Shown here: positions 5,133 to 28,841 of the stretch, one piece after another
How positions within the stretch are numbered: the first letter of the stretch is position 1
Layout: each line of letters starts with the position of its first letter
Assembly (NCBI GenBank): GCA_963836025.1
Contig: CAWIIE010000015.1
Span: forward strand, 99,676-163,675
Direction: 5' to 3'
Length of the DNA stretch: 64,000 bases
Source of the DNA: an uncultured Actinomycetota bacterium
GTDB taxonomy: Bacteria > Actinomycetota > Actinomycetes > JBEVHX01
Made by a program: the position numbers and the translations under genes
Notes under the pieces: model-generated
Told to the model about the DNA's origin: nothing
Seen by the model: only the letters and a program-made list of their open reading frames with translations
Databases searched by the model: none

Positions 5133-5190
5133 TGACGATATCGTCACTCACGAACCTATGCTCAGTCAAGCGCAAATGAGGAAATCGTCA
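5133..5190. promoter_or_regulatory. Paired TetR-type operators with divergent promoter
   Basis: Perfect palindrome TGACGATATCGTCA (5133-5146) and TGAGGAAATCGTCA (5177-5190), 44 bp apart; TTGACT on the minus strand between them. Confidence 0.85.
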
Positions 5191-5252
5191 TTTCTGACTG
5201 AACCGCGCTAGGATGGATGTGCACAACCCGCCGAGGACGCCGAGGAGTGGTC

Positions 5253-5903
5253 GTGAGCAACGCAGCAACTCAGGAGCCCAACCGACTGGACCGCCGCAAG
5301 GCCCGGACCCGGGCAGCTCTCATCCGGGCTGCGCAGACGCTCATCGCCCAAGGCAGGACGAACGTGCCGATCCTGGAGATCACCCAGGCCGCCGACGTCG
5401 GGATGGGTTCCTTCTACAACCACTTCGAGACCAAGGAACAGTTGTTCGAAGCTGCTGTCGAGGCAGTGATGGACGGCTACGGTCAGCTGCTCGACGACCT
5501 GACCAGAGGCATCGAGGACCCCGCAGAGGTGTTCGCCTGCAGCTTCCGGCTCACCGGACGGCTTCAACGCAGCGAGCCGGAGCTCAACCGGATCTTCCTC
5601 AACAACGTGCTCCGGCTGCTCAGCGCCGACAGCGGCCTGGCTCCACGTGCCCGGCGCGACATCAAGGCCGCCGTGGATGCCGGCCGCTTCGACGTCGAGG
5701 ACCTCGACGTCGCGGTCACGATGACTGCCGGAGCCCTCATCGCCCTAGGCCAGCTGCTGCACGACCAGCCGGAGCGCGATGTCGAGGAGACCACCGACCG
5801 GATGACCGAAGAGCTTCTGCGCATGTTCGGCGTGCGGGCCGCGGCGGCTCGTCGCATCTGCAGGCTGCCGCTACCCGACCTCGCGGCCCCCACGGCGTCA
5901 TGA
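5253..5903 (+). CDS. TetR/AcrR family regulator (paralog 1)
   Basis: RRKARTRAALIRAA...ITQAADVGMGSFYNHFETKEQL HTH; GAGGAG upstream; divergent from the VOC operon. Confidence 0.92.
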   Translation: MSNAATQEPNRLDRRKARTRAALIRAAQTLIAQGRTNVPILEITQAADVGMGSFYNHFETKEQLFEAAVEAVMDGYGQLLDDLTRGIEDPAEVFACSFRLTGRLQRSEPELNRIFLNNVLRLLSADSGLAPRARRDIKAAVDAGRFDVEDLDVAVTMTAGALIALGQLLHDQPERDVEETTDRMTEELLRMFGVRAAAARRICRLPLPDLAAPTAS

Positions 5904-6030
5904 CGTCACGGTTGTGCTGCCGACCAACTTCATCGGCTCCGCAAGGGGCGTGGGCGGACGTGTAGGCATTCGCGTGCTTGAGGGGCATCGGGGGCAATCC
6001 AGACGCTCATCGTTGAGGAGGGACATCGCC

Positions 6031-7101
6031 GTGTCATCGCCTTCAGATGATGAGAACGATCCATGGATTCGGTACGTCGATGTCGACGGTCTGCGGTTGC
6101 GGACTTCCGTGCGGGGAAGCGGGACACCGCTGCTGCTGCTCACCGGCATCGGGGCGAGCCTGGAACTGTCCGTTCCCATCGAAGACGCACTCAACCCTCA
6201 CGGTGTGCAGACCCTCACCGTGGACGCGCCCGGCACCGGGAAGTCCTCGCATTATCGGCGGCCACGCAGGATGCCCGGGTTCGCGCTCACGGTGGAGCGG
6301 ATGCTGGACGCGCTCGGTTACGACCGGGTCGACGTTCTCGGCGTGTCCTTCGGCGGTGTCCTCGCCCAGCAGCTCGCCCACCGGGCCCCCCAGCGCATAC
6401 GCCGGCTCGTTCTCGCCTCCACTGCGGCCGGCGTGCCGTTCCTCGGCGGCGTTCCAGGGTCACCCCTGCCCCTGCTCGCACTTGCGACCCCGCGCCGCTA
6501 CCAATCGCCGGACTACTACCGACGAATCGCCGGAACGTTGTACGGCGGGCAGGCCCGCCACGACCCCGAGGGGCTGCTGCACGGTTCGATTGCGCGGTTC
6601 TCCGAGGCCCCATCCCTGCGGGGCTACCTGTACCAGCTCTACGCGATCAGCTTCTGGACCGGCCTCCCGTGGCTATGGCGGCTGCGCCAGCCCACCCTGG
6701 TGCTGATCGGCGACGACGACCCGATCGTTCCCGTGGTCAATGGCAGGATTCTCACCTGGCTCATCCCGGATGCCCGGCTGGAGATCATCCGGGGCGGGGG
6801 GCACCTGTTCCCCTTGGAGCGGCCCACCGAGATCGCCGCGCTCGTCGCCGAGTTCCTTCACCGCGACGACAGTGGTCAACCGGCCGCCGCGGGGGGTGCC
6901 AGCAGCGCGCAGAGTCCCGCCAACGGTCCACCCCACGCTCACTCACTAACGTTCCGAGCTCGAGGATTCTCGCTGACGGTCCACCCTGGAGGGTTCGTCG
7001 ACCCGATAGCCCAGCCACGGCGCCGGACGCCATGTTCGATCATGGCAGCGCGGACGACGAGGGGTCAACCCGCCGCGAGGCAAGCGACGGACGTGGGTTA
7101 G
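6031..7101 (+). CDS. phaZ: Alpha/beta hydrolase, PHA depolymerase (PhaZ)-like; true 3' end may be near 6870
   Basis: GAGGAGG RBS; GIGASLE, GVSFGG nucleophile, LIGDDDPIVP and GGHLF; the tail after ~6870 looks like read-through. Confidence 0.75.
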   Translation: MSSPSDDENDPWIRYVDVDGLRLRTSVRGSGTPLLLLTGIGASLELSVPIEDALNPHGVQTLTVDAPGTGKSSHYRRPRRMPGFALTVERMLDALGYDRVDVLGVSFGGVLAQQLAHRAPQRIRRLVLASTAAGVPFLGGVPGSPLPLLALATPRRYQSPDYYRRIAGTLYGGQARHDPEGLLHGSIARFSEAPSLRGYLYQLYAISFWTGLPWLWRLRQPTLVLIGDDDPIVPVVNGRILTWLIPDARLEIIRGGGHLFPLERPTEIAALVAEFLHRDDSGQPAAAGGASSAQSPANGPPHAHSLTFRARGFSLTVHPGGFVDPIAQPRRRTPCSIMAARTTRGQPAARQATDVG

Positions 7102-7322
7102 GCGGCTCGGAGTACCGCGGTCCGAAGCAGCCGTCACCGCTGAACATGTTGCGGCACGAAGCGCAGCGACGAGCCGCTCGGCGTCCGGTTCCCGGATCCG
7201 ACATCGTCGCGCCGAGAGTGATCGGCTCGGAGCAGTATGCGCTGGTGGCGGACACGGTGGCGTGCCACTGCTCATCGTGCTCGACACGCTGTCCACGGTT
7301 CGATCGCGGAGAAGCTGCTAAC

Positions 7323-7374
7323 TGAGGATTTCGTCACGGAGACTTGCTTCTCCGCATCACTGACGATATCGTCA
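7323..7374 (+). promoter_or_regulatory. Paired operators and promoter upstream of the Ala-rich protein
   Basis: TGAGGATTTCGTCA (7323-7336) and TGACGATATCGTCA (7361-7374); TTGCTT-N17-TATCGT overlaps the second site. Confidence 0.8.
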
Positions 7375-7431
7375 GTAGTGCAGGAACATACCAAGTGCCC
7401 TCACCGGGCCCAGAACCCAAGGTGGTTACTC

Positions 7432-7878
7432 ATGACGCAGCACACGGATTACTCCGCGCGGCTGGATGATCTGCAACAGCGGGTCGCGACGGCCAGGTCG
7501 GCGGTGCAGGCCGCCGCGGCCGAGTCCGATGCACAGCTCAGGCAGCGGATCGATCGGGCTCAGGCCGACCTGGACCAGTCAGTCGAGAACGCACGCCAGG
7601 AGGACTCGCAGGCCGCCGACAGCGCCCGGGCGAAGTGGGCGCAGCTGAAGGCTGACGCCGCGGCCAAGATGAGCGACGTCAAGGCGAACATCGACAAGCG
7701 GACCCGCCAGGTGGACGCCAAGGTCGCCGACGCCGACGCGGCCTTGGCAGAAGCGGACGCCGCCGAAGCCCTCGACTACGCCGATTGGGCGGTCGAGAAC
7801 GCGGAGCTGGCCATGCTCGACGCGATCCACGCCCGCGCCCACGCCGACAAGCTCGCCAAGGGCGCAGCCAACTCGTAA
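7432..7878 (+). CDS. Ala-rich helical hypothetical protein, 148 aa (candidate phasin-like)
   Basis: MTQHTDYSARLDDLQQRV...; 43 Ala, no Pro/Cys/Phe; AAGGTGG RBS. Confidence 0.8.
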   Translation: MTQHTDYSARLDDLQQRVATARSAVQAAAAESDAQLRQRIDRAQADLDQSVENARQEDSQAADSARAKWAQLKADAAAKMSDVKANIDKRTRQVDAKVADADAALAEADAAEALDYADWAVENAELAMLDAIHARAHADKLAKGAANS

Positions 7879-7991
7879 CCCCAATCGGACTGGTGGGAAT
7901 CAAGCCCCAGTTCTCCTGACAACACTCGCGCCGCGCGGGCAGGAACGGTTGACGCCTTGCCCGCGCGGCATCACCCAAAGAAAGGTTTGCA

Positions 7992-8588
7992 ATGACTACA
8001 GATGTGAAGACCCCGGACCCGCTGCGCGACACGGTCCGGGCCGGCGCCCGGGAGGCGTCGGCGGCCTGGTGGTGGCTCTTGGCCCTTGGGGCGCTGTGGA
8101 TCTGGTTCGGCATGTTCGTGCTGTCGTACAGGGTGGGCAGCCTGGTCGCGGTGGCGGCGTTCGTCGGCGTGGCGTTCCTGTTCGGCGGCATCACCCAGCT
8201 CGTGGTGGCCAGCCGGGTACCCACGATGCGCTGGCTGTCCATCGTTGGCGGGATCCTGGGGGTCGCCGCCGGCATCCTCACCTTCGTCTGGCCAGACATC
8301 ACCCTCTACGTCGTGTCGATCCTCGTGGCCTGGTACCTGATCGTCTTTGGCATCATCCACATCGTCAGCGCGCTGGCCGGCCCCAAGCTGTCCTGGTGGT
8401 GGACCGGGCTGCTGCTCGGCATCTCCGAGCTGGTGCTGGGGGTGTGGGCGGCCGGCTCCTGGGAGCGCTCGCTGATGACGCTGGTGACCCTGGTCGGAGT
8501 GTGGGCCATCTGCCGCGGGGTGAACGAGATCTTCGCCGGCTTCACCGTGCGCCAGGTCGGCAAGCAGGCGGAGCAGCTGGTCGCCTGA
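7992..8588 (+). CDS. HdeD/DUF308 family membrane protein
   Basis: WWWLLALGALWIWFG start and repeated hydrophobic helices of DUF308 type. Confidence 0.85.
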   Translation: MTTDVKTPDPLRDTVRAGAREASAAWWWLLALGALWIWFGMFVLSYRVGSLVAVAAFVGVAFLFGGITQLVVASRVPTMRWLSIVGGILGVAAGILTFVWPDITLYVVSILVAWYLIVFGIIHIVSALAGPKLSWWWTGLLLGISELVLGVWAAGSWERSLMTLVTLVGVWAICRGVNEIFAGFTVRQVGKQAEQLVA

Positions 8589-8696: not shown

Positions 8697-9125
8697 ATGG
8701 GAGCGGGCCAGCCGAAACCGGTCAACCCGGCGCTGCTGCGGCATCTCCAAGAGCGCAGCAAGCGCCGGGAGAACCGGGCTGCCGACCAGATCACGCGGTT
8801 CGCCGGTTCGATGAAGTTCGTCTACATCCATGCCATCTGGTTCAGCTTGTGGATCGGCCTTGGAGTCGAGGATTATCCGTTCGGCCTGCTGACGATGATC
8901 GTGTCGCTGGAGGCCATCTTCCTGTCGACGTTCGTGATGATCAGCCAGAACCGCGCCGACGAGAAACGCCAAGTGATCGCGGACCAGGCGTGGCGGACAG
9001 TCCAGGAGGAGGAGCAACAGAACGAGAGGCTGCTCCGCCTGTCCAACGAGATCCTCGATCTCACCAAGGAGATCCACGCGGCGAGCGCGACAGCCGCGCC
9101 GGCGAGTCGGCCCGGAGCTCAGTGA
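8697..9125 (+). CDS. DUF1003 membrane protein
   Basis: ADQITRFAGSM...YPFGLLTMIVSLEAIFLSTFVMISQNR. Confidence 0.9.
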   Translation: MGAGQPKPVNPALLRHLQERSKRRENRAADQITRFAGSMKFVYIHAIWFSLWIGLGVEDYPFGLLTMIVSLEAIFLSTFVMISQNRADEKRQVIADQAWRTVQEEEQQNERLLRLSNEILDLTKEIHAASATAAPASRPGAQ

Positions 9126-11569: not shown

Positions 11570-12340
11570 TGCCACGGTCGGCGCCGTCGTCGGTGAGCTC
11601 CGTGTCGTCTTTCGCACGACGTCCCCGTCGCGCTAGGCCGGCGAGTCGATTTGTCGCAGACTCCTGCATGGGTGCGATGTGCATTGGCGCGTTGAAACCA
11701 GCAGGCAGCCCTCTCTTACGCTCGGGGTGTGCACGCAGACAGGTACATCGATCGTCAGGCCGACTTCAAGGTAGTGGTCACCTCGAGATTGTGGGTCGAT
11801 CCGGGACGGCCTCAACGCGGTTCCTCCTCGCGCTTCGCGCTGCGGGGGCTCCGTGACCCCGCCCCTTGGCTCGACGCTGCCCAAAGCCGTCCGCGCCGGC
11901 CGAACAACGCGTAGGGAAAACCCTTGCCCTCACTAGCTCCGTCAGGGATGCCCGATCGGTATGCCGATGAGAAAGCCTGCTGCCGAATGTCCTTGCGTTC
12001 CCCGTCGTCTACTACAGCGTGCTTTGCGCGGACGGCGTCGTCGCCGGATCGCGCCGCGCGTCTTTGGCGGTGTGTCCCGGCGCAACCCGGCTGCCGAGCC
12101 GGAGCCAGGTTCACCCGCGCCGCCGTCCCTCAAGTGCTACTCGTACCAGCTGTACGCGGCCGCGGGCTGAACGAGCCTGTTCTGGCTGCAGCGGATCCGT
12201 CAGCCCACGCTCGTGCTCGCCGGCGACGACGACCCCAACGTCCCCGCGCAGAACGGCTGGCTCCTCGGGGCGCTCATCCCAGAAGCACAGCTGAACGTCG
12301 TACGCGGGGGCAGGCACTTGTTCCTGCTCGAGCATGGCGC
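11570..12340 (+). pseudogene. Decayed third PhaZ-like alpha/beta hydrolase
   Basis: PPSLKCYSYQLYAAAG*TSLFWLQRIRQPTLVLAGDDDPNVP...GGRHLFLLE aligns with the 6031 and 21497 genes; in-frame stop; 5' boundary approximate. Confidence 0.7.
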
Positions 12341-12571: not shown

Positions 12572-13630
12572 ATGACAGCGCCGCCCCGTCGTCGGGCGGA
12601 CGAGGTCGCGTCACCGCGACGCGGCGAGGGCCCTTCCCCGACGACCGCCGAAGCCGCACCACGCGCGACGAACCCGGTCATGCTGATGAACCCGAGGTCG
12701 GGCGGCGGGAAGGTGACGAGGTTCGGGCTCGCCGATCGCTGCCATGAGCTCGGTGTGGAGCCGGTCGTGCTCGGTCCCGATGATGACCTGCTGCAGTTGG
12801 CGGAGGACGCCGTCGCGCGGGGGTGCGACCTCCTCGGCATGGCCGGCGGCGACGGCTCCCAGGCGCTGGTCGCCTCCGTCGCGGCCCGCCACCGCATCCC
12901 ATTGGTCGTCGTCCCCGCCGGCACGCGCAACCACTTCGCCTTGGACCTCGGCGTCGGAACCGGCGTCGTCCGCTCGCTGTCGGCGTTCGTCGATGGCGTC
13001 GACGGCCAAGTCGACCTTGCCGAGATCAACGGCCGGGTGTTCGTGAACAACGCGTCGATGGGGGCGTACGCCGAGCTGGTCCGGTCGCCGAACTACCGCG
13101 GGGCCAAGTTTCGCACCGCCGTCGAGCTGCTGCCCGACCTTGTGCTCCCGTCGGCTGCGCCCGTCCACCTGCGGTACAGGCTGCCGAGCGGCGAGCAGGC
13201 CACGACCGCGCAGGTGCTGCTCGTGTCGAACAATCCGTACCAGCTGTCCACGCTGCGTCACGGCGCGGGTCGCCCGCGACTCGACCGGGGCGTCCTTGGT
13301 GTGGTCTCGGTAGCGGTCCCCGGCCGCGCGGAGGCTGACCTGCTCGCCAAGCTCGACGCGGCCGCGCAGAACGAGCGGTTCCCGGGGTGGCACGAGTGGA
13401 CGACGACGGAGTTCGACGTCGCGTCGGGGCAACCCGTCGCCCTGGGAGTCGACGGCGAGGCGCTCACGCTCGACGCCCCGCTGCACTTCGTGACCCGGCC
13501 GCGCGCACTGGTCGTCCGCGTCCCGCGGCTCCGGACGACGCGGCGTCCGAAGCCGCTGCTGGCCGCCGGCGGCCCGCGGCCGTCGCCGTTCGCCGCGCTG
13601 TCGCGGCTGGCCGCAGGTCGCGAGGGCTGA
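12572..13630 (+). CDS. Diacylglycerol/lipid kinase family protein
   Basis: NPRSGGG, AGGDGS, PAGTRNHFA, FVNNASMG and VDGE; start uncertain. Confidence 0.88.
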   Translation: MTAPPRRRADEVASPRRGEGPSPTTAEAAPRATNPVMLMNPRSGGGKVTRFGLADRCHELGVEPVVLGPDDDLLQLAEDAVARGCDLLGMAGGDGSQALVASVAARHRIPLVVVPAGTRNHFALDLGVGTGVVRSLSAFVDGVDGQVDLAEINGRVFVNNASMGAYAELVRSPNYRGAKFRTAVELLPDLVLPSAAPVHLRYRLPSGEQATTAQVLLVSNNPYQLSTLRHGAGRPRLDRGVLGVVSVAVPGRAEADLLAKLDAAAQNERFPGWHEWTTTEFDVASGQPVALGVDGEALTLDAPLHFVTRPRALVVRVPRLRTTRRPKPLLAAGGPRPSPFAALSRLAAGREG

Positions 13631-13631
13631 G

Positions 13632-14321
13632 GTGGACGAGCGGGCGGACGAGGAGGCGGTCCTGCCCGACCGCGTTGCGTCGTCGGCGGTCGGCGGCAAC
13701 GACCCGGTCGAGGACTGGCTGGCCCGGCGGCTCGTGGAAGCGGGCCTGGCGGAGCCGACCGACGCGCTGGTCCGGGTGCTGCGTCGGCTGGGCCGGTGGG
13801 ACCGCCTGACGTACGTGGCCGTGGCCGGGATGTCGACGCCATTGCTCGATGAGCCGATGCGGATCGCGTCGCGGGGGGCCGACCACTCCAAGCCGTGGTT
13901 CGCCACCGCGGCGGTGGTCGCGGCAGTGGGCGGTTCGACAGGCCGCCGGGCGGCGCTGACCGGGTTGGCGGCCGTGGGTGCGACGTCCTTCGTCGTTAAC
14001 CAGCCGATGAAGCTCGCCGGGTCGCGACGGCGGCCCGACCGGCTCGCGATGCGCGTCCCGGTCTCACGGTGGGTCCCGATGCCGTCGTCGACGTCGTTCC
14101 CGTCGGGGCACGCGGCGTCCGCAGCCGCGTTCGCCGTCGCCGTCGGGGACGTCATCCCGCGCCTGCGCCTCCCGCTGCGGGTCGCGGCTGCGATAGTGGG
14201 CTTCTCGCGCGTCTACACGGGCGTCCACTACCCCGGCGACGTCATCATCGGCGCTGTGACGGGAGCCGTCATCGGGCGAGCGACGTCCCGCGTCGCCCGG
14301 CGAATCACGCGGCCCACCTGA
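13632..14321 (+). CDS. PAP2 family phosphatase
   Basis: K-x6-RP, SFPSGH and SRVYTGVHYPGD motifs. Confidence 0.92.
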   Translation: MDERADEEAVLPDRVASSAVGGNDPVEDWLARRLVEAGLAEPTDALVRVLRRLGRWDRLTYVAVAGMSTPLLDEPMRIASRGADHSKPWFATAAVVAAVGGSTGRRAALTGLAAVGATSFVVNQPMKLAGSRRRPDRLAMRVPVSRWVPMPSSTSFPSGHAASAAAFAVAVGDVIPRLRLPLRVAAAIVGFSRVYTGVHYPGDVIIGAVTGAVIGRATSRVARRITRPT

Positions 14322-14750
14322 TCGGCAGCCTACGTCTCCATTGCCGGCATCGGCACGCGGGCGAGCTGCGGGCGTCAGTGGCTCCGACGCCGAGCAGGCG
14401 CAGGCACGCCTCGGTCAGTTCGTCCACCGAGTTGTCGTCGGCGCGTCCCGGCTCGCGCTCGCCGACCCGCAGCAGACCGAGGAGCCCGCCAGCGACGGCG
14501 CTCAGCGCGATCTCAGCATCCGCAACGGTGAAGCCGCCGGCGGCCTGCCCGGCCCGGATTTCACGAAGCGCAGCAGACCGAGGAACGCGCGCGTCGAGCA
14601 TCCCCACGTCCGCGGCCCGAGTGATCTCGAGGACGGGAGCGTTGAGTCGCCCAACCGCGATGAAGGACTGCGCAGCTTTGATCAACACTGCACGGCCGCG
14701 TGCCGTGCGACGCGCCGGGCGGGACGGGCAAAGGTGGCCATGCGCTCACG
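14305..14750 (-). pseudogene. Internally deleted TetR (paralog 2)
   Basis: LIKAAQSFIAVGRLNAPVLEITRAADVGM joins directly to the C-terminal part AGGFTVADAEIAL...LRLLGV; the GSFYNHF recognition helix and middle region are missing. Confidence 0.8.
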
Positions 14751-14781
14751 GGCCATTCCCCAGATGCGGTTCTGTCAGAAC

Positions 14782-14866
14782 TGACGACTCTTTCATCTAG
14801 CCACTCACTGAGGATTTCGTCATCTGCTACTTGACGATGGTAGCATCATGAGTGACAATATCATCA
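14782..14866 (+). promoter_or_regulatory. phaC promoter with operators
   Basis: TGAGGATTTCGTCA (14809-14822), TTGACG-N17-GACAAT and TGACAATATCATCA (14853-14866); a weaker third site at 14782. Confidence 0.85.
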
Positions 14867-14884
14867 TTCTCAGAGGAGCGACGG

Positions 14885-18110: not shown

Positions 18111-18119
18111 TGGCGGATC

Positions 18120-18212: not shown

Positions 18213-18276
18213 CGACGCTCACTCCTCCGGTCCGAACGTCAACTGCAACGAGCCCGACTGCGAAATGGATCTTAAC

Positions 18277-18318
18277 TGATGATTTCATCAATGTAGAGAT
18301 TATGATCACTCCTGTCAA
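18277..18318 (-). promoter_or_regulatory. Sigma70-type promoter with operator
   Basis: Minus strand TTGACA-N17-TACATT, directly followed by TGATGAAATCATCA (18277-18290). Confidence 0.85.
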
Positions 18319-19502: not shown

Positions 19503-19560
19503 CACGTCAGCACCCTTGGGCGGAAACGCTTCCGATGGCTTCACTGTGACCCGGCTCTCC

Positions 19561-19620
19561 TGAGGATTGACGAGGAGTTCTCACATAGATGATGTCATCA
19601 TCTCTGATCAGCGTCCTCAT
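19561..19620. promoter_or_regulatory. Degenerate operator sites upstream of TetR paralog 3
   Basis: AGATGATGTCATCA (19587-19600) plus weaker half-sites; TTGACG at 19567. Confidence 0.5.
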
Positions 19621-20109
19621 CGCCAGTAGCTCGGGGATGAGCCTCGCCACCAACACCTCCCCGGTGCGCCCGGTGAACCGTCACATGAACCTGCACAGCG
19701 AGCGAGGTGCAGACGAACCCCGGTCGCAGCGCCGAGCAAGCCGAGCACGCCGCCGCAGATGCACGTGGTGAAGGTGCCCTGGGCCGTGAGGATCGCGTCG
19801 GTCCGCGCGAAGGCGCACGCGACGAAGGTGACCGGGATCAGGAAAATGCGAGCAGGATGACTGTCGGGACGAGGTTGGGGCTTCCGATCGCGAAGATGAC
19901 CGGCCCGGTCTCTACTGCATCGCCCCGGGTTTGCTACAGGTCGGTTGCGCCGCGAGCGGCTGCTCGACGGCCCGTTGAGTCGACGGAAGTATCCGGCTTC
20001 GACCTCCGCAGGGGTCCGATAGAACACCGTGGTCCAGCCCTGCGTGGTCATGTCCAGCCGATGTTGCCCCCGGTGCCCGTCACCGGCACCGAGCCGCCGA
20101 GATCGGCGG

Positions 20110-20265
20110 TCGCAGTCGGCGATGAAGCCTGTGGCGCGTTCGGTTTTGCCGCTGTGCCCGGCGACGATCGCGGCGCCCTGGCCGGCGAAGCTGTGCCAGA
20201 TGGCCGCACCGATGCCGCGGGTGCCCCCGGTCACCAGCGCGACTCGCCCGGTGAGTTTGGTGCCT
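20110..20265 (-). pseudogene. N-terminal remnant of a second PhaB/FabG-like SDR
   Basis: TKLTGRVALVTGGTRGIGAAI...AGQGAAIVAGHSG, after which similarity is lost. Confidence 0.7.
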
Positions 20266-20328
20266 ACGATCGGTGTGGGAGTAGGCCTCGTGTCGGCGGC
20301 AGCGACTCTCGCGAGAAGGTGGGGTGTG

Positions 20329-21516
20329 ATGACGACCGACAACATCGGCCGGGGCCGAGGCACCGACTACTACTTGATCGCTGAGCAGCTGACCGAGTCC
20401 GAGATGGGCTATCTGAGGCGCGCTCAGCAGTTCGTCGACAACGACGTGCTGCCGGTGATCAACGGCTACTGGGAGCGGGCCGAGTTCCCGTTCGAGCTGG
20501 TCGAGAAGCTCGCCAAGCTGGACATCGTCGGCGACGGGATCGAGGGGTACGGCTGTCCGCCGATGAGCCCGATCGCCGCGGGTCTGGTGAACATGGAGCT
20601 GCACCGCGGTGACGGGAGCCTGGGCACGTTCCATGGCGTGCACTGCGGTCTGGCGATGAGGTCGATCTCAATGCTGGGGTCGGAGGAGCAGAAGCAGCGC
20701 TGGCTGCCGCCGATGGCCCGGTTGGAGAAGATCGGTGCGTTCGCGCTGACCGAACCGGCGCACGGGTCGGACTCGATCGCCCTGGAGTCGTCGGCGCGAC
20801 GCGAGGGTGACGAGTGGGTGCTGAACGGCCACAAGCGGTGGATCGGCAACGGTTCGATCGCCGATGTCGTGGTCGTGTGGGCCCGCGACCAGGAGGACGG
20901 TCAGGTCAAAGGGTTCCTGGTCGAGAAGGGCACACCGGGCTACGAGCCGACGGTGATCGAGGGCAAGGTGGCGCTGCGCTCGGTCTGGAACGCGGACATC
21001 GTCATCAGCGACTGCCGGGTTCCCGAGGCGAACCGGCTGGTCGACGCTCTCTCGTTTAAGGACACCGCGGCCGTCCTGGCCGGCACGCGCAACACCGTGG
21101 CATGGGCATCGCTTGGGCACGCCGTGGCCGCATACGAGATCGCGCTCACGTATGCGAAGCAGCGGCAGCAGTTCGGCAAGCCGTTGGTTGGTTTCCAGCT
21201 GGTCCAGGACAAGCTGGTCGCGATGCTGTGCGAAGTGACCGCGATGCAGCTGTACTGCCTGCGCCTCGGGCGACTGATCGAGGATGGCCGGTTCACCGAC
21301 ACCATCGCCGCGCTGGCCAAACTGAACAACACGGTGAAGGCCCGCCAGGTGTGCGCCATGGCCAGGGAGATCCTCGGCGGGAACGGCATCCTGCTCGATT
21401 ACCATGTCGTGCGCCACATGGCCGACATGGAGGCGCTGTACACCTACGAGGGGACGGCCGAGATTCAGACGTTGATCGTCGGGCGCGACATCACCGGTGT
21501 TGGAGCCTTTGCGTAG
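20329..21516 (+). CDS. Acyl-CoA dehydrogenase (glutaryl-CoA dehydrogenase-like clade)
   Basis: FALTEPAHGSD, LNGHKRWIGNG, RQQFGKPL, ILGGNG and TYEGT. Confidence 0.92.
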   Translation: MTTDNIGRGRGTDYYLIAEQLTESEMGYLRRAQQFVDNDVLPVINGYWERAEFPFELVEKLAKLDIVGDGIEGYGCPPMSPIAAGLVNMELHRGDGSLGTFHGVHCGLAMRSISMLGSEEQKQRWLPPMARLEKIGAFALTEPAHGSDSIALESSARREGDEWVLNGHKRWIGNGSIADVVVVWARDQEDGQVKGFLVEKGTPGYEPTVIEGKVALRSVWNADIVISDCRVPEANRLVDALSFKDTAAVLAGTRNTVAWASLGHAVAAYEIALTYAKQRQQFGKPLVGFQLVQDKLVAMLCEVTAMQLYCLRLGRLIEDGRFTDTIAALAKLNNTVKARQVCAMAREILGGNGILLDYHVVRHMADMEALYTYEGTAEIQTLIVGRDITGVGAFA

Positions 21517-22324
21517 CGCCGGCGTGGACCGCGACATCCGGATCGTCGACGTCGACGGCCTGCGCATCCGGGTTGCTGCTCGTGGTGACGGCCAATGCCC
21601 CCTACTGCTCATCATGGGCATAGGAGGGTCACTCGACATGTGGGGACCGTTCGAGCGCCCGCTGCGCCGTCGCGGAGTCGCGACGATCTCGTACGACGCG
21701 CCGGGCACCGGCGGGTCGTCGCCGTACCCGTTCCCGAAGCGCGTCCGCGGGCTCACTGCCACCGTCGAGCATCTGCTCGACGCCCTTGGACATGACCAGG
21801 TCGACGTCCTCGGTGTCTCCTTTGGTGGCGGCATCGCGCAACAGCTCGCACATCAGGCACCGCACCGGGTACGCCGGCTCGTGCTAGCGGCCACCGCCCC
21901 CGGCCTTGGTGGGGTGCCCGGGCATCCACGAGCACTGATCGCCCTGGCAACGCCCCGGCGTTACATCGATCCTGCCTACCTCGCCCGGGTTTCCGGGCGG
22001 GTGTACGGCGGACGCGCTCGGCTGGACGCCGGGCTGACCGCCAGCTCCGCCGAGCGGTTCGCCAAACCCCCGTCGGTCAGCGGATATCTGGCGCAGATGT
22101 GGGCGATCCCCGGCTGGTCCAGCCTGCCGTGGCTGCACCGGCTTCCGCATCCGACGCTCGTGCTGGCAGGTGACGACGACCCGATCATCCCGCTGGTCAA
22201 CGGACGCATCCTCGCCGCCCGCATCCCGAACGCACGCCTGCACGTGGTCAAAGGCGGCGGGCACCTGTTCCTGCTGGAGGAGGCCGAGCAGCTCGCGGAC
22301 GTGGTCGCCGACTTCCTGGCGTAG
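21497..22324 (+). CDS. phaZ: Alpha/beta hydrolase, PhaZ-like (second copy)
   Basis: GIGGSLD, GVSFGG, AGDDDPIIP and GGHLF; paralog of the 6031 gene; start uncertain. Confidence 0.78.
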   Translation: MLEPLRSAGVDRDIRIVDVDGLRIRVAARGDGQCPLLLIMGIGGSLDMWGPFERPLRRRGVATISYDAPGTGGSSPYPFPKRVRGLTATVEHLLDALGHDQVDVLGVSFGGGIAQQLAHQAPHRVRRLVLAATAPGLGGVPGHPRALIALATPRRYIDPAYLARVSGRVYGGRARLDAGLTASSAERFAKPPSVSGYLAQMWAIPGWSSLPWLHRLPHPTLVLAGDDDPIIPLVNGRILAARIPNARLHVVKGGGHLFLLEEAEQLADVVADFLA

Positions 22325-22762: not shown

Positions 22763-22951
22763 TCAGTGCCCGCAACCTCGGCACCCGGTTGCCTGATGGG
22801 TATTCAGCAGGCTCTTCACCGTGAACACGCACGAACCGCAGACCCGCCCGGCGTCAGTCGTCCGGCACACCTGCGCGACGGACCGCGCGCCGGCGTGAAA
22901 TGCCCGGGCCACAGACCGGTCGGTCACCGCATTGCACTGACAGATAATCAT
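22763..22951 (-). CDS. Bfd-like [2Fe-2S] binding protein
   Basis: MIICQCNAVTD...AGRVCGSC (CxC...CxxC); GAGGGG RBS. Confidence 0.85.
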   Translation of the reverse strand: MIICQCNAVTDRSVARAFHAGARSVAQVCRTTDAGRVCGSCVFTVKSLLNTHQATGCRGCGH

Positions 22952-23044
22952 GGGAACCCCTCGCAGAATTTCATCGAAGCGCGTCGTCGGGCGGCGGTGC
23001 CTGGCTAGCTACATGCATGGGGGTGGTCGAGTTGCTTCGTTGCG

Positions 23045-24842
23045 TTAGGTCTTGACCAGAGAGTGCGGCACCTCGGTGGTGCGTGCGCGCAGCCATTCGC
23101 CGAGCGCCTTTGCCTGCGCATCTAGTCGCAGCGTCGAGGTGGCGCCGGTCCCGAGCAGTCCCCGGATGACGAAGTTGACCGCGCCGAGATTTGGGAATTC
23201 GTATCGCGAGATCGCCAGGTCCCGTGTTTCGGGAAGAAGGCGGCGGAGTTCCTCGACGGTGAGGGTCGACTTGAGCCAGTCCCAGGCTTGCCGGTCGCGT
23301 ACCCAGACGCCGAGATTCGCGTCGCCGCCCTTGTCGCCGGAGCGGGCGTGCACGATGTCGCCGAGTGAGGCGACGACGAGCTCATCGGCGGTCCACGGCG
23401 GTAGCGGCGATTGGCCAACCGGCTCGGACTGCGGGCCGACCTCGCGTTCGCTGCCGTGTGGGTTGCCCGGTGCGAGGGTCTCGGTCGTGCCGTCATGGTG
23501 GTGGACCGCGTGGTCGAGCACCGCGTGGGCGAGCAGTGCGGGCCAGTAGACACCGAATGCCGACCCTGATTGTGGCGGGCCGAGGGTGTACAACCCGGGG
23601 TAGCTGGACAGGGCCAGCTCGACCATCCGCGAGGAGAAGGCGCGCCCGGCGGCCTGCTGCGTCCCCTGCACTGTGATCTTGAGCAGCTGGGTGCCGGCAT
23701 TCTGGCTGTCGGGATCGGGCTGGGCCTGCCCGATCCGGTCGACCGCGACCGCGTCGAGCCCGTCGACGGCCTCGGCGTAGCGGTGGACGGATCGCTCGAC
23801 GAGGGCGGCCTTTGCGTCGAGGTCGGTGCCGGTGAGCGCGAGGATCAGGCTGTTCTCCCATCCCCCCATCCCCGGTGATCGCGACCTTGGTGGTCGCGGG
23901 GGGCGCCGAGCCTTGCACGCCGCGGATCTGCACGCGGTCGTCGCCCAGGTCGGTGAGCTGGGCGGTGTCCAGGTGGGTGATCACGTCGGGGTTGAGGTAG
24001 GCGGGTTCACCGATCTCGTAGACCAGTTGGGCGGTGACCGTGTCGCGGGTGACGGCGCCGCCGGTGCCGGGGTTCTTGGTGATCACGCAGGAGCCGTCGG
24101 CGGCGATCTCGGCGATCGGGAACCCTGGCTCCATCAGGTCGGGGATGGCACGAAACCCGGAGAAGTTGCCGCCGGTGGCCTGTGGCCCGCATTCGATGAC
24201 GTGTCCGGCGCAGACCGCGCCGGCGAGGGCGTCGTAGTCGCGCGGGGTCCAACTCCACCACCAGGCGGCGGGACCGACGACCAGTGAGGCGTCGGCGACG
24301 CGGCCGGTGATGACGATGTCGGCGCCGTTGTCCAGGGCGCGCGCGATCCCGAACCCGCCCAGGTAGGCGTTCGCGGTTAGTGGCTGATGCGGCCAGGACG
24401 ACAGCGGTTCCCCGCTGGTCAGGTGCGGCAATACATGGCCCGCCTGCTGCAGCGCGTCGAGGCGGCCGAACACGTCGTCGCCTTCGATGTGGGAGACCCG
24501 CAGGTCGTAACCGCGGCGTCCGATCAGCTCGCGGGTCGCGTCGGCCAGCCCGGCGGGGTTGAGCCCGCCGGCGTTGACGACCAGCCGGATCCCGTTCCCG
24601 ACGAGGTGCTCGAGCGCCGCGTCCAGGTGCTGCAGGAAGCTGGTCGCGTAGCCCTTGGTGCTGTCCTTGGCGCGCGCCTTGCCGAGGATGAGCATCGTGA
24701 CCTCGGCCAGGTAGTCACCGGTGAGGACGTCGATGCCGCCGGCCCGGGCCATGTCGGCCATGGCCGCGGCCCGGTCACCGTAGAAGCCGGAGCAGTTCCC
24801 GACGCGGATCGGACGCTGCCCCCGTCCGGCTGCCGTTGTCAT
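23045..24842 (-). CDS. AtuA family (DUF1446) protein (frameshift ~23870)
   Basis: IRVGNCSGFYGDR, DYLAE, GADIVITGRVAD, GHVIECG, HARSGDKG and DAQAKALGE. Confidence 0.92.
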
Positions 24843-25286
24843 GCTGCCGCCCCCGCCGTCGACACGAGACGCCCGGTGGAGTGCTCGCCCGCGATCTTGC
24901 TGACCCATGCCGTGCCCTCGAACCCCACCTCGCCGGAGGGGTTCTCCTCGATGAGCTCGAGGGTCAAGCTGTCGCCATCGACCGCCGTCACGCGGGCGGT
25001 GTAGGTGAGATCGGCCGGCGCGTAGACCGGCCTGCGCAGGCGGTAGGACACCTTCGTGACCTGCCACCTTGGGCCGAGGCCCTCGGTGACGCAGCGCAGG
25101 GCGAGCGCCGCCCGCAGGTGGGAGTGCAGCGCGAGACCGGCGTGGCCCTCCTCGCGGGCATGAGGTCTCGTCGAAGTGGATGCGGTGCGGGTTCCAGGTG
25201 ACCGCGCTGTAGCGGAACAGCTGAAACGCGGTAGCGGTGTGCCGGAGCGGTGGAAGCAGGTCTCCGACCTGAAAGGTGATGGACAT
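24839..25286 (-). CDS. MaoC-like hotdog dehydratase (frameshift ~25160)
   Basis: QLFRYSAVTWNPHRIHFD hydratase motif; C-terminus SYRLRRPVY in a shifted frame. Confidence 0.8.
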
Positions 25287-25831
25287 TACGACTCCTGCGA
25301 GGGGTTGCGCAGCACGACGGTGCGCCGGTTGCGGTTGAGGACGGCGCCGTCGGCGGACGTGAAGGTGTTGAGGGTGGTGACGAAGACGCAGGGGCCGGAG
25401 CGGGTCTGCTTCGGCGTGACGGCCTCGAGGGTCGTCTCGAGCACCAGTTCCGTGCCGGCGGTCACCGGGTTGACCAGCTCCATCTCCTCGCCGGCGCCCA
25501 TCACCCGAAGCCCGAGGTCGCCCCCGAGCGGCGTTTCCCCGTCGTTGGGGGTTCCGTCCGGTGCGAGCTGGGCCTCCGGGGTGCCGATGCCCCATTCCAC
25601 GATCGAGGCGAGCAGGTTCGGTGGCGCCACCACGTCGGCGTGGCCGGCGGCCCGTGCCGCCTCCGGGTCGAAGTGGCTCGGGTCCGTGGCGCCGATCGTC
25701 ATCGCGTAGCGACCGATGGTCACCGCGTCCAGCGTGCCGAGGCTGCGCCGCGCGAGCACGGTCCCGACCCGCGGTCTTGTCTGGGCGAAGTACGTCGCCA
25801 GCGGGGTGCCGGGTTCAGGCGTGAACGACAT
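25286..25831 (-). CDS. MaoC N-terminal-type (FAS1-like) hotdog protein
   Basis: IGRYAMTIGATDPSHFDPEAARAAGHADVVAPP. Confidence 0.85.
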   Translation of the reverse strand: MSFTPEPGTPLATYFAQTRPRVGTVLARRSLGTLDAVTIGRYAMTIGATDPSHFDPEAARAAGHADVVAPPNLLASIVEWGIGTPEAQLAPDGTPNDGETPLGGDLGLRVMGAGEEMELVNPVTAGTELVLETTLEAVTPKQTRSGPCVFVTTLNTFTSADGAVLNRNRRTVVLRNPSQES

Positions 25832-27029
25832 GCTGCGGCTCCCCAGGGGTGCGGTGGATGCCGGCCTGGTCGTCCGCATCGGCGGCTCGACGGAGCTCCG
25901 CGAGGATCTCCTCGGTGGACTGGCCGAGCGCCGGGGCGGCCCGCAGCGGTCCCGCTGGCGAGTCGCCGAGCCGCAGCGGGCAGCCCGGGACTGGCACCCG
26001 TCCCCGGCCCGGGTGCTCGACGTACTGGATCATGCCGCGCTGGATCAGGTGCTCGTCGGTGTCGACCTCACGGATCGACTTGACCGGCGCACAGGGCACA
26101 CCGGCGGCCTGCAGGTCCCGCACCAGCTCGGCGCGCGTGCGGGTGCTGGTGAACGACGACACCTCCTCGTCGACCGCGTCGATGTTGGCGACCCGGTCCT
26201 TCGTCGTGCGGAACCTGGGGTCCTCGATCAGCTCGGGCCGGCCCAGCGCGGCTGCCACGCCGCGCCAGTGCCGCTCGGAGATGCAGATGATCGCCAGCCA
26301 TCCGTCGCTCGCCGGGTAGATGTTGTACGGCGCGATCGCCATGCCCGAGTGCCGGTTCCCGGTGCGTTCGGGGAGCTGCCGCTCGGGGTCGTTGTGCAGG
26401 CCGCCCAGGCTCGACGCCAGCATCGGGTAGATGGTGTCGTGCATCGAGACCTCGACGATCTGCCCCCGTCCCGTGCGCTCGCGCTGGAACAGGGCCGCGC
26501 TGATCGCCGCGAACAGGTGGATGCCGCCGGAGAAGTCGACGAACGCGGCGCCGCCCTTGGTCGGCGGCCCGTCCGGCTCCCCGGTGGCCGCGGCGGCGCC
26601 GGACATCGCCTGCACCGTGATGTCCATGGCGGACATGTGCGCGTAGGGACCCGTGGACCCGTAGCCCTTGCCGGAGGCCACGACCAGGCGCGGGTTGTGC
26701 GCCAGGAGCCGCTCCGGGCTGAGCTGCAGGCGCTCCATGGTGCCCGGCGCGAAGTTCTCGATGAGCACGTCGGCGGTCTCCACCAGGTCGAGCAGCGCCT
26801 GGCGGCCGGCGTCGGTCTTCAGGTCGAGCACCACGCTGCGCTTGTTGGAGTTCAGCATCACGAACTCGTGGGACTCGACCGGGTCGTGCGAGCGGAAGCG
26901 CAGTGGCTCACCGCCCGGCGGCTCGACCTTGATGACGTCGGCGCCGAGCTGTGCGAAGAGCAGCCCGCAATAGGGGCCGTTGTAGATCTGGCCCAGTTCG
27001 AGGACCCGGACGCCGTCGAATGCCGGCAT
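25815..27029 (-). CDS. Family III (CaiB/BaiF) CoA-transferase
   Basis: GVRVLELG, LGADVIKVEPPGG, NKRSVVLDLK, ENFAPG and APALGQST. Confidence 0.93.
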   Translation of the reverse strand: MPAFDGVRVLELGQIYNGPYCGLLFAQLGADVIKVEPPGGEPLRFRSHDPVESHEFVMLNSNKRSVVLDLKTDAGRQALLDLVETADVLIENFAPGTMERLQLSPERLLAHNPRLVVASGKGYGSTGPYAHMSAMDITVQAMSGAAAATGEPDGPPTKGGAAFVDFSGGIHLFAAISAALFQRERTGRGQIVEVSMHDTIYPMLASSLGGLHNDPERQLPERTGNRHSGMAIAPYNIYPASDGWLAIICISERHWRGVAAALGRPELIEDPRFRTTKDRVANIDAVDEEVSSFTSTRTRAELVRDLQAAGVPCAPVKSIREVDTDEHLIQRGMIQYVEHPGRGRVPVPGCPLRLGDSPAGPLRAAPALGQSTEEILAELRRAADADDQAGIHRTPGEPQHVVHA

Positions 27030-27113
27030 GAGTGCTTCACCTCTCCGATCTGTGTGCTGAGAGCGAACTTCCCCCGGCAGGTCTTCCGCCGGGGAACTTC
27101 TCCGACCTTCGGA

Positions 27114-27677
27114 TCAGGCCTTGGTGACGGCGTTGACGCCGTTGGCGCCGCCAAGGATGTAGGGGAGCGGTCCGATGCCCTGCACCGCCGACGCGGTCTG
27201 GACGGCGTACTGAACGGCGACCGCGTCCATGACCGAGTGGAAGGTGCCGTCCTCGTTGAAGCTGACCTGCGCGCCCTCGATCCAGGCCAAGGCAACGGTG
27301 TCCTCGGTGTTGTCCTCCGGGCAGAAGAACGTGTGCGTCGAGCCGCCGGGCTCGTACAGGTAGGAGCCCGCCGTCTGCGGCTGATCCGGGTACTCCCGGT
27401 ACTCCCAGCGGCCCTGGATCGTCCACACCTGAGCCGGACCGGTGTGGTAGTGCAGCGGCAGTTCGCAACCGGGCGCCAGGGTGGCCAGGAAGACCCACTC
27501 GCCGCGCTCGAGGTCCAGGCGCAGCGGCTGGATGTGAATGCCCGGGGCGACCAGGTCCTTGAACATAGGAATCTGGTCGATGTTCACGGTCAGCAGCTCG
27601 CCCTGCGGCAGGGCGATCACGGGCAGCGGGGCGCCGGTGCCGGTGGTGGCCATCCCGGGAGAGAGGGTTGCGGTCAT
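27114..27677 (-). CDS. 2,4'-dihydroxyacetophenone dioxygenase-like cupin
   Basis: LPLHYHTG...GRWEYREYP...GSYLYEPGGSTHT three-His cupin; GAAAGG RBS. Confidence 0.85.
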   Translation of the reverse strand: MTATLSPGMATTGTGAPLPVIALPQGELLTVNIDQIPMFKDLVAPGIHIQPLRLDLERGEWVFLATLAPGCELPLHYHTGPAQVWTIQGRWEYREYPDQPQTAGSYLYEPGGSTHTFFCPEDNTEDTVALAWIEGAQVSFNEDGTFHSVMDAVAVQYAVQTASAVQGIGPLPYILGGANGVNAVTKA

Positions 27678-27803
27678 GGGTCGGTCCTTTCTGAGATAGA
27701 TCCGGGTTTCCGGATACAAAAACGGATTCCCGTACGGTACACGTCGCCAATGCGCCTTGACAAGACCTTTCTGGGTCGTCGAGGAGGTTGTTAGCGTCAG
27801 CGC

Positions 27804-28562
27804 ATGCCAGCGCGCCCGCACCGCACCGTGGACCGGGTGACCGGGATCCTCGAGACCGTGTCCCTGAGCCCGCGCGGCGTGACCTTGGCCGAGCTGGCGG
27901 TCGCCCTGGATGCGGCCAAGACCTCCGTCCAGGAGCTGACCAACGGACTTCTCGCCCGCGGCTATCTCATCGAGGAGGACCACCGGTTCCACCTCGGGCC
28001 GGGGCCGTTCATCCTCGCCGCGCGCGCGAACAAGCTGGCCGCAGTGTCACTTGATCACCGGTTCGTCGCCGAGCTGGCCAAGGTCCTCGGCTGCACCGTC
28101 CTCGTCGGGGTGCGCGTCGGGGACGCCATGATCTTCACCGACCACGTGGGTGAGGAGTCACCCAGCCTGGCGTTCGCCGCACGCACGCACGCCCGTCGCC
28201 CCCTGTACACGAGCGCCGCCGGCAAGATCCTGCTCGCCAACGTCCCCGACGACGAGATGCACCGCCTCCTCGATCTCGCCGGCCCCGACCAGGCAGGTGA
28301 CGTCCGGCAGTTCCTCGCCGAGCTTCCCGAGATCCGGTCCCGCCGACTCGCCTTCAACCGCGGAGTCACGATCGAAGACGCGTTTGTCGTGGCCACCCCT
28401 CTGTTGGCACCCGACGGCGGCCTCATTGCGGCGATCAGTGCAGCCGTCGACCGCGCCGAGGCGGATCGTCTCGACGAACTCGGCGAGGAGCTCAAGGAGG
28501 CAGTTGCCGTCCTCGGCCCGGAGTACGGCCTCAAGGGCGCCGAACGAATTGCCAGCGAGTAG
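27804..28562 (+). CDS. IclR family regulator
   Basis: RTVDRVTGILE HTH and PLYTSAAGKILLA; divergent from the cupin operon. Confidence 0.92.
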   Translation: MPARPHRTVDRVTGILETVSLSPRGVTLAELAVALDAAKTSVQELTNGLLARGYLIEEDHRFHLGPGPFILAARANKLAAVSLDHRFVAELAKVLGCTVLVGVRVGDAMIFTDHVGEESPSLAFAARTHARRPLYTSAAGKILLANVPDDEMHRLLDLAGPDQAGDVRQFLAELPEIRSRRLAFNRGVTIEDAFVVATPLLAPDGGLIAAISAAVDRAEADRLDELGEELKEAVAVLGPEYGLKGAERIASE

Positions 28563-28725
28563 AGCATCGGCCGCGAAACTCCCTGACCAACGGGCGGGCA
28601 GCTACCTGACCGCGGCACTGCAGCGACGTTTGACCCAAGCGAAGGCCGAGAGCCAGGGCACTTCCAGCGACGACGGCCAGGTCGAGGTCGACGTCCTCGA
28701 CCTTGAAGCGGCCGGCGCGGCTCAT
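28560..28725 (-). pseudogene. C-terminal remnant of TetR (paralog 4)
   Basis: AGRFKVEDVDLDLAVVAGSALALG aligns with AGRFDVEDLDVAVTMTAGALIALG of the 5253 gene. Confidence 0.65.
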
Positions 28726-28754
28726 GCCGCTCCTCCAATGCAGTCAGGCAGAAC

Positions 28755-28841
28755 TGACGATTGTCTTCATTGGAGGAGGTGACTGAGGATTCCGTCATCT
28801 GCCTCTTGACGACGATAGCGTCATGGGTGACGATATAGTCA
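28755..28841 (+). promoter_or_regulatory. Promoter with operators, homologous to the phaC promoter
   Basis: TGAGGATTCCGTCA (28784-28797), TTGACG-N17-GACGAT and TGACGATATAGTCA (28828-28841); 44-bp spacing. Confidence 0.85.

Follow-up and report, generated by a model that had tools for sequence, protein, structure and literature searches.

The stretch of DNA analysed here (the window, 64 kb) comes from an uncultured Actinomycetota bacterium (assembly GCA_963836025.1, contig CAWIIE010000015.1, positions 99,676 to 163,675) whose draft genome comprises 3.28 Mb in 20 contigs and is rated 69% complete. Its left part carries repeated copies of a 14-bp palindrome next to genes of aromatic catabolism, of polyhydroxyalkanoate (PHA) metabolism and of membrane proteins, together with two genes, tetR1 and tetR2, that code regulators of the TetR family. 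Sequence comparisons make it very probable that the palindrome is bound by a phenol-sensing repressor that belongs to a known subfamily.

The core of the system is a pair of divergent transcription units. The leftward operon (minus strand) starts with the gene of a two-domain VOC protein that resembles type I extradiol dioxygenases (4035-5111; Pfam Glyoxalase), followed by genes for a fumarylacetoacetate-hydrolase-family enzyme (FAH; 3044-4128; Pfam FAA_hydrolase), an acyl-CoA synthetase (1199-3176; NCBIfam NF005714, 666 bits for a cutoff of 632) and a DoxX-family membrane protein (longest-ORF bounds 806-1477; Pfam DoxX_2, E 1e-20). Its last gene codes a FAD-dependent aromatic hydroxylase that runs past the window edge, positions 3-809 holding the N-terminal 269 amino acids (Pfam FAD_binding_3, E 8e-38). 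When compared by tblastn to the Nocardioides guangzhouensis locus (L008), the synthetase is read in two frames, with a frameshift near 1410-1429, and the FAH enzyme in three, with breaks near 3561 and 4035. The VOC protein is 89% identical to its L008 counterpart and gives only weak matches to extradiol dioxygenase equivalogs, while the partial hydroxylase scores 344 bits with NCBIfam NF004829 and is 90% identical to the N. guangzhouensis ortholog. Relatives of the FAH enzyme in the PDB are HpaG/HpcE-type isomerase/decarboxylases and diketo-acid or maleylpyruvate hydrolases; for VOC, FAH and hydroxylase alike, the solved relatives are distant. On the other side tetR1 (5253-5903, plus strand) starts at a GTG codon preceded by GAGGAG, within a longest open reading frame (ORF) that begins at 5217, and is followed in the same direction by a gene for a PhaZ-like alpha/beta hydrolase (5914-7101) that scores 238.8 bits with TIGR02240, below the cutoff of 250.6. 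The second regulator gene, tetR2, is at 18831-19544 on the minus strand.

Exact matches to the palindrome (TGAnGAnnTCnTCA / TGANGANNTCNTCA) are found at 5133, 5177, 7323, 7361, 14809 and 18277. The expectation for such counts was obtained from 100 dinucleotide-preserving shuffles of the window: it is 0.06 for exact matches, and none of the shuffles reaches six. A search that tolerates one mismatch yields 11 matches for 1.28 expected (4 in the top shuffle) and adds 14853, 19587, 28784, 28828 and 2735. The last of these (TGATGAGCTGGTCA), located within the acyl-CoA synthetase gene and with G+C at its centre, was absent from the list made in the first-pass annotation of this DNA; the ten coordinates given there all hold, the listed sites are intergenic or beside gene remnants according to the gene calls, and beyond 29 kb, where no site had been noticed, only two-mismatch sites occur (35176 and 37536). 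Counted from start to start, the pairs 5133/5177, 14809/14853 and 28784/28828 have a spacing of 44 bp and 7323/7361 one of 38 bp, which together with TTGAC between the sites corroborates the operator, TTGAC, operator layout noticed earlier at three promoters. The whole genome has ten exact matches, six of them inside 13.2 kb of the window. The other four have G+C-containing centres (CG, TG, CG and CT) and are found within long open frames with a coding-type G+C content at third codon positions. In a position weight matrix scan the top nine matches are the training sites themselves, so that the scan is circular for these and shows only the gap between them (at least 23.2) and the next matches (19.6 and 18.5).

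TetR1 and TetR2 share 43% identity (BLASTP E 3e-51) and both combine the Pfam domains TetR_N, at 34.1 and 36.8 bits for a cutoff of 24 that places them in the TetR family, and TetR_C_40 (E 8e-29 and 1e-24). The closest solved relative is RolR, the repressor of resorcinol catabolism (PDB 3aqs/3aqt), with E 2.2e-36 over residues 22-223, the next match having E 3e-07. [quoted passage not shown] The HTH signature is present in TetR1 (ITQAADVGMGSFYNHF) and TetR2 (ITDAADVGFGSFYNHF), and so is the resorcinol-holding tetrad, which corresponds to D81, R132, R135 and D136 of TetR1 when an offset of 16 between chain and paper numbering, derived from Ile56 and Tyr68, is applied to RolR. In an alignment of 82 sequences (80 orthologs besides TetR1 and TetR2) 81-82 retain each of these signature and tetrad residues. 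Both regulators are thus assigned by sequence to a described subfamily for which crystal structures exist and the type of operator is known, and the idea of an undescribed TetR subfamily put forward in the first-pass annotation has to be dropped. Acyl-CoA sensing finds no support either, as the conserved ligand residues are those gripping resorcinol in RolR; since these four residues are kept, the effector of TetR1-type repressors is predicted to be a phenolic compound. The recognition helices AADVGMGSFYNHF and AADVGFGSFYNHF are near-identical, as had been stated, and differ by one residue (M vs F). TetR1 is the main candidate to bind the palindrome, while TetR2 possibly binds TGATGA..TCATCA variants.

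The region between the VOC gene and tetR1 has two operators. Operator A (TGACGATATCGTCA, 5133-5146) is an exact match that covers the putative -10 hexamer (GACGAT) of the leftward VOC promoter. Its -35 hexamer TTGACT (5164-5169, minus strand) lies between the two operators and was read from the sequence, being uncalled by the promoter scan. Operator B (TGAGGAAATCGTCA, 5177-5190) is 5-7 bp upstream of this -35 hexamer and precedes the tetR1 -10 hexamer (TAGGAT) by about 20 bp. The order on the VOC strand is therefore operator B, 5-7 bp, TTGACT, 17-18 bp and GACGAT within operator A, while on the tetR side a TAnnnT box is found about 20 bp past operator B. A repressor bound to operator A would block the -10 hexamer of the TTGAC promoter that drives the genes for the VOC protein, FAH and flavin hydroxylase (with acyl-CoA synthetase and DoxX), and one bound to operator B would sit just upstream of the VOC -35 hexamer and over the tetR promoter. 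Because A covers the VOC -10 hexamer and B the tetR promoter, the repressor is expected to switch off both the pathway and its own gene, and a phenolic ligand would release it.

The conservation of this arrangement was assessed in relatives retrieved by a scan with one genome per species, in which 524 loci were confirmed by TetR alignment and the best 80 of these 524 were examined. The loci were fetched by recognition-helix peptide patterns, upstream DNA playing no part in the selection, and come from Nocardioides, Intrasporangium, Phycicoccus, Amycolatopsis, Streptomyces, Rhodococcus, Nocardia, Mycobacterium, Arthrobacter, Micromonospora and many uncultured Actinomycetota. The motif, with at most one mismatch, is present in the first 200 bp upstream of tetR in 80/80 loci, at a density of 9.56 sites per kb compared to 0.106 per kb across the rest of the loci. 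Conservation upstream of orthologs had been proposed in the first-pass annotation as a check of its claim that one TetR type and a 14-bp dyad are tied to a ring-cleavage operon, and this part of the proposal is well borne out. A pair of sites is found in 68 of the 80 loci, with spacings of 44 bp (40 cases), 43 bp (14), 45 bp (13) and 26 bp (4). If two mismatches per site are allowed, 69 loci have a pair at 43-45 bp; in 67 of these 69 pairs the two sites enclose TTGAC on the diverging gene's strand (GTCAA on the other strand), and the site A consensus TGACGAwATCGTCA is conserved across all 69. The gene diverging from tetR codes a VOC dioxygenase-like protein in 73 of the 80 loci, and the neighbours include FAH (C-terminal part) in 71, a flavin hydroxylase/monooxygenase in 69, acyl-CoA synthetase in 40 and DoxX in 37. 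The VOC/FAH/hydroxylase core unit appears to be ancient across Actinomycetota. A sample of 40 other class-level genomes is uninformative on conservation, since just one of them, besides the genome of the window (G000), carries a TetR1 relative at E <=1e-10.

A different part of the window, the block of genes coding AtuA, a family III CoA-transferase, a ChrR-like cupin and an IclR regulator (22800-28562), is syntenic with genes beside the TetR1 ortholog of Rhodococcus opacus (L018), at 63-87% protein identity. Identity this high, like that of 80-92% between TetR and its counterparts in Nocardioides-type genomes, is in keeping with a horizontal transfer of the entire region.

Two exact operators precede the gene of p148, a protein of 148 amino acids (7432-7878, plus strand) that is acidic and has 29% alanine. 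The proximal one (7361-7374) lies 71 bp before the start codon and has counterparts (TGACGATATCGTCA or at most one mismatch) 62-80 bp upstream of the gene in 26 of 28 metagenome loci, and the distal one (7323-7336) corresponds to a site near -125 that is common in these homolog loci. Such loci were fetched without reference to the operator, and among the 28 with enough upstream DNA 26 have a site within 160 bp upstream of p148, typically TGACGATATCGTCA near -75 and often a second one near -125; the four genome loci with p148 all have a site about 75 bp upstream. Downstream of p148 are genes for DUF308 (7992-8588) and DUF1003 (8697-9125) membrane proteins and, further on, for a diacylglycerol kinase (DAGK)-type lipid kinase (12572-13630) and a PAP2 phosphatase (13632-14321), all on the plus strand and identified with Pfam. 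The metagenome gene order after p148 (DUF308, DUF1003, DAGK-type kinase, PAP2) is that of the window, the kinase and PAP2 genes directly following p148-DUF1003 in L100, L107, L109 and L110, and on the longer metagenome contigs phaC-phaZ and tetR precede p148. The p148 operon, which had not been singled out in the first-pass annotation, would be the best-conserved added target. It appears that the operator was also recruited to this p148-DUF308-DUF1003(-lipid kinase/phosphatase) operon in a Nocardioides/Intrasporangium-like clade.

The p148 protein has no Pfam or NCBIfam match past cutoff and its Atlas neighbours are unnamed. AlphaFold predicts one continuous helix over residues 2-147 (pLDDT 94). 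A phasin was considered and rejected as an identity for p148, in view of the lack of a family match and of a helical hydrophobic moment that is no higher than in shuffles (263 of 500 reach it); a PHA- or phasin-like role is a guess from genomic context.

The PHA synthase gene phaC (14885-16650, plus strand; Pfam PhaC_N, E 1e-54) is preceded by a promoter, TTGACG-17-GACAAT (14831-14859), recognised by the promoter scan. An exact operator (14809-14822) is found upstream, and the -10 hexamer lies within a downstream operator with one mismatch (TGACAATATCATCA, 14853-14866). The window PhaC scores 444.6 bits with the class II model TIGR01839 and 383 with the class I model, both under cutoff (855.4 for class II), and the intact PhaC of N. 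guangzhouensis also has class II as its best class with 604.6 bits, under the same cutoff; the enzyme is termed class II-like because class II scores best yet neither PhaC passes the cutoff. By tblastn with the N. guangzhouensis protein phaC of the window is two-framed, with a change of frame near 16317. Contigs of two soil sequencing runs have one extra base at 16317/16320, one contig differing from the window at two other letters in 238, and since such near-identical contigs carry the base the frame break probably reflects an assembly error rather than decay. None of the four sequencing runs compared reaches across the promoter (14767-15034). In a 38.7-kb soil contig (L101, 8591-8746) the same promoter is followed by a VOC gene whose beginning is similar to the first 37 codons of the phaC frame (14885-14998, MTDHRDAHKD...), and phaC may have captured the promoter plus leader of a former VOC gene.

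The link to PHA proposed in the first-pass annotation extends beyond this genome. In the closest TetR1 relatives (L005-L008, L010 and L012-L014; 80-92% identity in the best-aligned segment) tetR is followed by phaC and an alpha/beta hydrolase gene, and the hydrolase after phaC in N. guangzhouensis passes the Pseudomonas-type PHA depolymerase model TIGR02240 with 283.8 bits for the cutoff of 250.6. Eight of the nine relatives with phaC near tetR have an operator about 100 bp before phaC, which overlaps the -35 position of a conserved TATCCT box. The soil contig L101 has a promoter 89% identical over 106 bp to the dual-operator phaC promoter of the window, where it heads an operon containing phaC-phaZ. 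It is likely that the same operator was recruited to phaC-phaZ, coding synthase and depolymerase, in the Nocardioides/Intrasporangium-like clade. The window has a second gene for a PhaZ-like hydrolase (21497-22324, plus strand; TIGR02240 238.3 bits vs 250.6) on the far side of tetR2, after an acyl-CoA dehydrogenase gene (about 20380-21516, Pfam), and, in the interval from the p148 operon to the lipid kinase gene, a fragment of a third such hydrolase (12048-12332, about 97-99 amino acids) that shares 49-54% identity with the two complete copies. No PHB_acc_N (PhaR) or Phasin_2 match was found in the genome, whose 69% completeness means that absence is not shown.

A cassette similar to that of phaC precedes the gene of an AI-2E family transporter (28862-30085, plus strand; Pfam AI-2E_transport, E 9e-53). 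It spans 28784-28841 and consists of an operator (28784-28797), TTGACG (28806-28811) and a second operator (28828-28841), the promoter scan calling none here. The upstream regions of phaC and of the AI-2E gene align and have the operator-TTGAC-operator layout in common. Each is flanked by a diverging tetR remnant on the minus strand. The one beside phaC (14305-14745) has an internal deletion that joins the N-terminal 43 amino acids to the C-terminal part, leaving no complete recognition helix; its BLASTP match to TetR1 is 67% over 43 amino acids (E 7e-16) and 35% over 110 aligned positions. The full-length TetR of L101 is 73% identical to this remnant over its N-terminal 49 amino acids. The one beside the AI-2E promoter (28534-28725) keeps a 24-amino-acid trace of the TetR C-terminal domain, 13 of 24 positions being identical to TetR1 (E 5e-7 for that single comparison). 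Alignment of the cassettes, the adjoining tetR remnants and the full-length TetR kept in L101 indicate that the three 44-bp layouts are paralogs in which the extra tetR genes decayed and the operators were kept, a relationship missed in the first-pass annotation. The control cassette would have been copied in this genome, one copy now driving phaC and one the AI-2E transporter gene.

Both duplicated cassettes also have a TGACGA..TTCA half-site pair (14782 and 28755) about 25 bp upstream of the first operator, and a TGACGA-N5-GCnTCA motif over the -35 hexamer (14832 and 28807). Such half-site pairs may be extra contacts, or simply the TTGACG hexamer. A stretch of 24 amino acids encoded at 55720-55791, 26 kb from the AI-2E gene, is 92% identical to the C-terminal end of the transporter (residues 397-420) and is a duplicated tail of its gene.

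The exact site at 18277-18290 (TGATGATTTCATCA) lies beside a strong minus-strand promoter, TTGACA-17-TACATT (18318 to 18290), in about 1.2 kb without a recognisable gene, none being found for about 500 bp on either side. The segment 17560-18830 shows no coding-type frame signal, only Arg/Pro/Ala-rich ORFs, and no Rfam or tRNA match. The homolog of this site in L030 precedes genes of short-chain dehydrogenases/reductases (SDR). For the window site, an orphan operator within rearranged DNA is the most plausible reading. An ORF for a 30-amino-acid micropeptide (18120-18212, minus strand), which has a good ribosome binding site and had been counted as a regulon member, was discarded: it has no tblastn match at E <0.01 in 82 loci (L002, L004, L005-L084) or elsewhere in the genome, so it is not conserved in what was searched. 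A weak site with one mismatch (AGATGATGTCATCA, 19587-19600) is 43 bp upstream of the tetR2 start. By tblastx, positions 16400-20100 have only TetR2 and an SDR piece in common with L030. The surroundings of tetR2 also look rearranged in that a short piece from the N-terminus of an SDR (19617-20363, minus strand; Pfam adh_short positions 1-44, E 1e-4) separates tetR2 from the acyl-CoA dehydrogenase gene.

The closest characterised counterpart of this system is RolR with its operator rolO in Corynebacterium glutamicum. Both share the TetR_C_40 fold family, the HTH signature, the four ligand-holding residues, autoregulation (predicted here) and a position divergent from an operon for aromatic catabolism with a flavin hydroxylase gene. 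According to a secondary source, rolO has 29 bp with the overlapping repeats TGAAC-N4-GTTCA and TTCAT-N2-ATGAA (PMC9210681). The first of these repeats forms a dyad of 14 bp whose outer TGA/TCA equal those of the motif reported here, while the inner bases differ, TGAAC-N4-GTTCA being replaced by TGAcGA-N2-TCgTCA. By the same description rolO forms a single site of 29 bp, located downstream of the start sites, whereas here two separate dyads about 44 bp apart lie over promoter elements. The catabolic genes differ too, an intradiol dioxygenase and a maleylacetate reductase being coded in the RolR system and VOC and FAH proteins here, and the regulon of the window would reach PHA and membrane/lipid genes, unlike that of RolR.

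PhaD of Pseudomonas putida is described as a TetR-family activator of phaC1ZC2D and phaIF with operators of 25 and 29 bp whose 6-bp half-sites are 8 bp apart, and a CoA intermediate of beta-oxidation is proposed as its effector (PMC7590123). It resembles the present system in being a TetR-family protein encoded beside class II-type phaC and PhaZ genes and acting on synthase and granule-protein promoters, and it differs in being an activator with an 8-bp gap between half-sites, compared to a 2-bp gap, a repression geometry and RolR-like ligand residues here. The resemblance is limited to gene content, any other relation being known only at the level of the TetR family. PhaR-type regulators of Cupriavidus and Paracoccus control synthase and granule-protein genes as well; they form a protein family unrelated to the TetRs of the window. 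In the literature searched no match was found to the operator 14-mers, and no description of an actinobacterial case in which a TetR sensor of phenol type controls the genes of PHA synthase and depolymerase.

Taken together, we consider it probable that the palindrome is the operator of RolR-subfamily repressors, with an ancestral target in the VOC unit, PHA and p148 targets added in one clade, and cassette copies in the present genome. Several observations weigh against this interpretation. The near-invariance of the recognition helix is partly built in, because the loci were chosen by recognition-helix peptides, and related genomes among the 80 loci are non-independent samples. Two more distant RolR-like TetRs of another genome (G028; L002 and L004) have neither a motif with at most one mismatch nearby nor an informative upstream palindrome. 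RolR is reported to work as a roadblock positioned downstream of the start site (PMC9210681), and the promoter occlusion proposed here consequently departs from the family precedent. The association of sites with -35/-10 boxes claimed in the first-pass annotation stands for TTGAC between paired sites at three promoters, but the consensus promoter scan passes only two of five regions (phaC TTGACG-17-GACAAT and the minus-strand TTGACA-17-TACATT at 18.3 kb), the hexamers at the other promoters being assigned by eye from conserved sequence. The transporter link drawn there fared less well: the AI-2E operator is seen only in this genome, and AI-2E homologs near the cluster in three relatives have no site in front. 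Among PHA genes, the ninth locus in which phaC-phaZ is close to tetR (L050) lacks a site ahead of phaC, and a second phaC of this genome (contig C7, about 324 kb), 71% identical to that of the window and located after an acyl-CoA synthetase paralog, has no operator within 4 kb. Finally, the genes for acyl-CoA synthetase, FAH (twice), phaC and AtuA are split by frame changes (1199-4128, 14885-16650 and 23045-25595).

Other explanations can be confronted with these data. It is possible, if less likely, that the two repressors divide the sites into overlapping but distinct regulons, TetR1 recognising only C/G-type sites (TGAcGA..TCgTCA) and TetR2 only T/A-type ones (TGATGA..TCATCA). The sites nearest tetR2 (18277 and 19587) and the right half of 14853 are indeed of T/A type, as are all three sites of L030, the one locus that encodes a close ortholog of TetR2 (85%), and a pair 44 bp apart in L105 before a divergent gene for a TetR1-like protein of 56% identity. 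The recognition helices are nonetheless one residue apart (M vs F), a single TetR2-ortholog locus is seen, and the T/A-type pairs of L030 and L105 precede genes that are TetR1-like, not TetR2-like. A further scenario restricts function to the VOC/tetR1 region and regards the phaC, AI-2E and 18277 sites as leftovers of duplicated, decaying DNA. The tetR remnants adjoining two cassettes, the orphan state of the 18277 site, the mismatches in the duplicated sites and the gene fragments of the locus (PhaZ at 12048-12332, the SDR pieces and the AI-2E tail at 55.7 kb) would all be accommodated by it. This is improbable, as operators and TTGAC outlasted the decay of the neighbouring tetR, the phaC cassette has an 89% identical counterpart over 106 bp in L101, where TetR is full-length, an operator before phaC recurs in eight relatives with a different promoter layout, and the phaC frameshift is not in near-identical soil contigs.

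Still less credit is given to a TetR that activates the PHA promoters in the manner of PhaD instead of repressing them. In its favour, PhaD is described as a TetR-family activator (PMC7590123) and the gene set of the window (class II-like phaC, PhaZ and TetR) resembles the Pseudomonas cluster. The sites, however, overlap -10 or -35 hexamers, the half-sites of PhaD are 8 bp apart compared to 2 bp here, and RolR, the closest characterised relative, is a repressor. It is very hard to sustain that a different regulator, such as the neighbouring IclR or a global factor, binds the palindrome and that the association with tetR is coincidental. An IclR gene does lie beside the AI-2E cassette (27804-28562), but the site is found in 80/80 tetR loci and IclR in 1/80, and the length and outer triplets of the dyad match the RolR operator type. 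The palindrome as operator of RolR-subfamily repressors is thus the reading retained, in a well-supported local regulon that is unpublished and whose regulator type is already described while its target set and operator differ.

The physiological logic of such a regulon can be sketched in speculative terms only. The chemistry considered is that of the classical orcinol pathway of Pseudomonas. In an orcinol- or alkylresorcinol-type route the hydroxylase might produce a trihydroxy ring that the VOC enzyme opens, FAH might cut the resulting polyketo acid and the synthetase might activate the acyl chain, while the RolR-type sensor would co-induce the PHA pair and the p148/lipid partners so that carbon of phenolic lipids is stored as polyester, the regulon growing by cassette copying and tetR decay. 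This scheme is unlikely.

These findings assign the operator TGAcGAwwTCgTCA, with pairs 43-45 bp apart, to a large unstudied RolR-type orthogroup. RolR already serves as a biosensor scaffold (PMC10415137), and new repressor/operator pairs are therefore on offer. A further lead given by the operator is an extradiol/FAH pathway of aromatic breakdown, so far uncharacterised, that occurs widely in Nocardia, Mycobacterium, Rhodococcus, Amycolatopsis and Nocardioides, and the window would provide an example of how a regulon grows via duplication of an entire control cassette.

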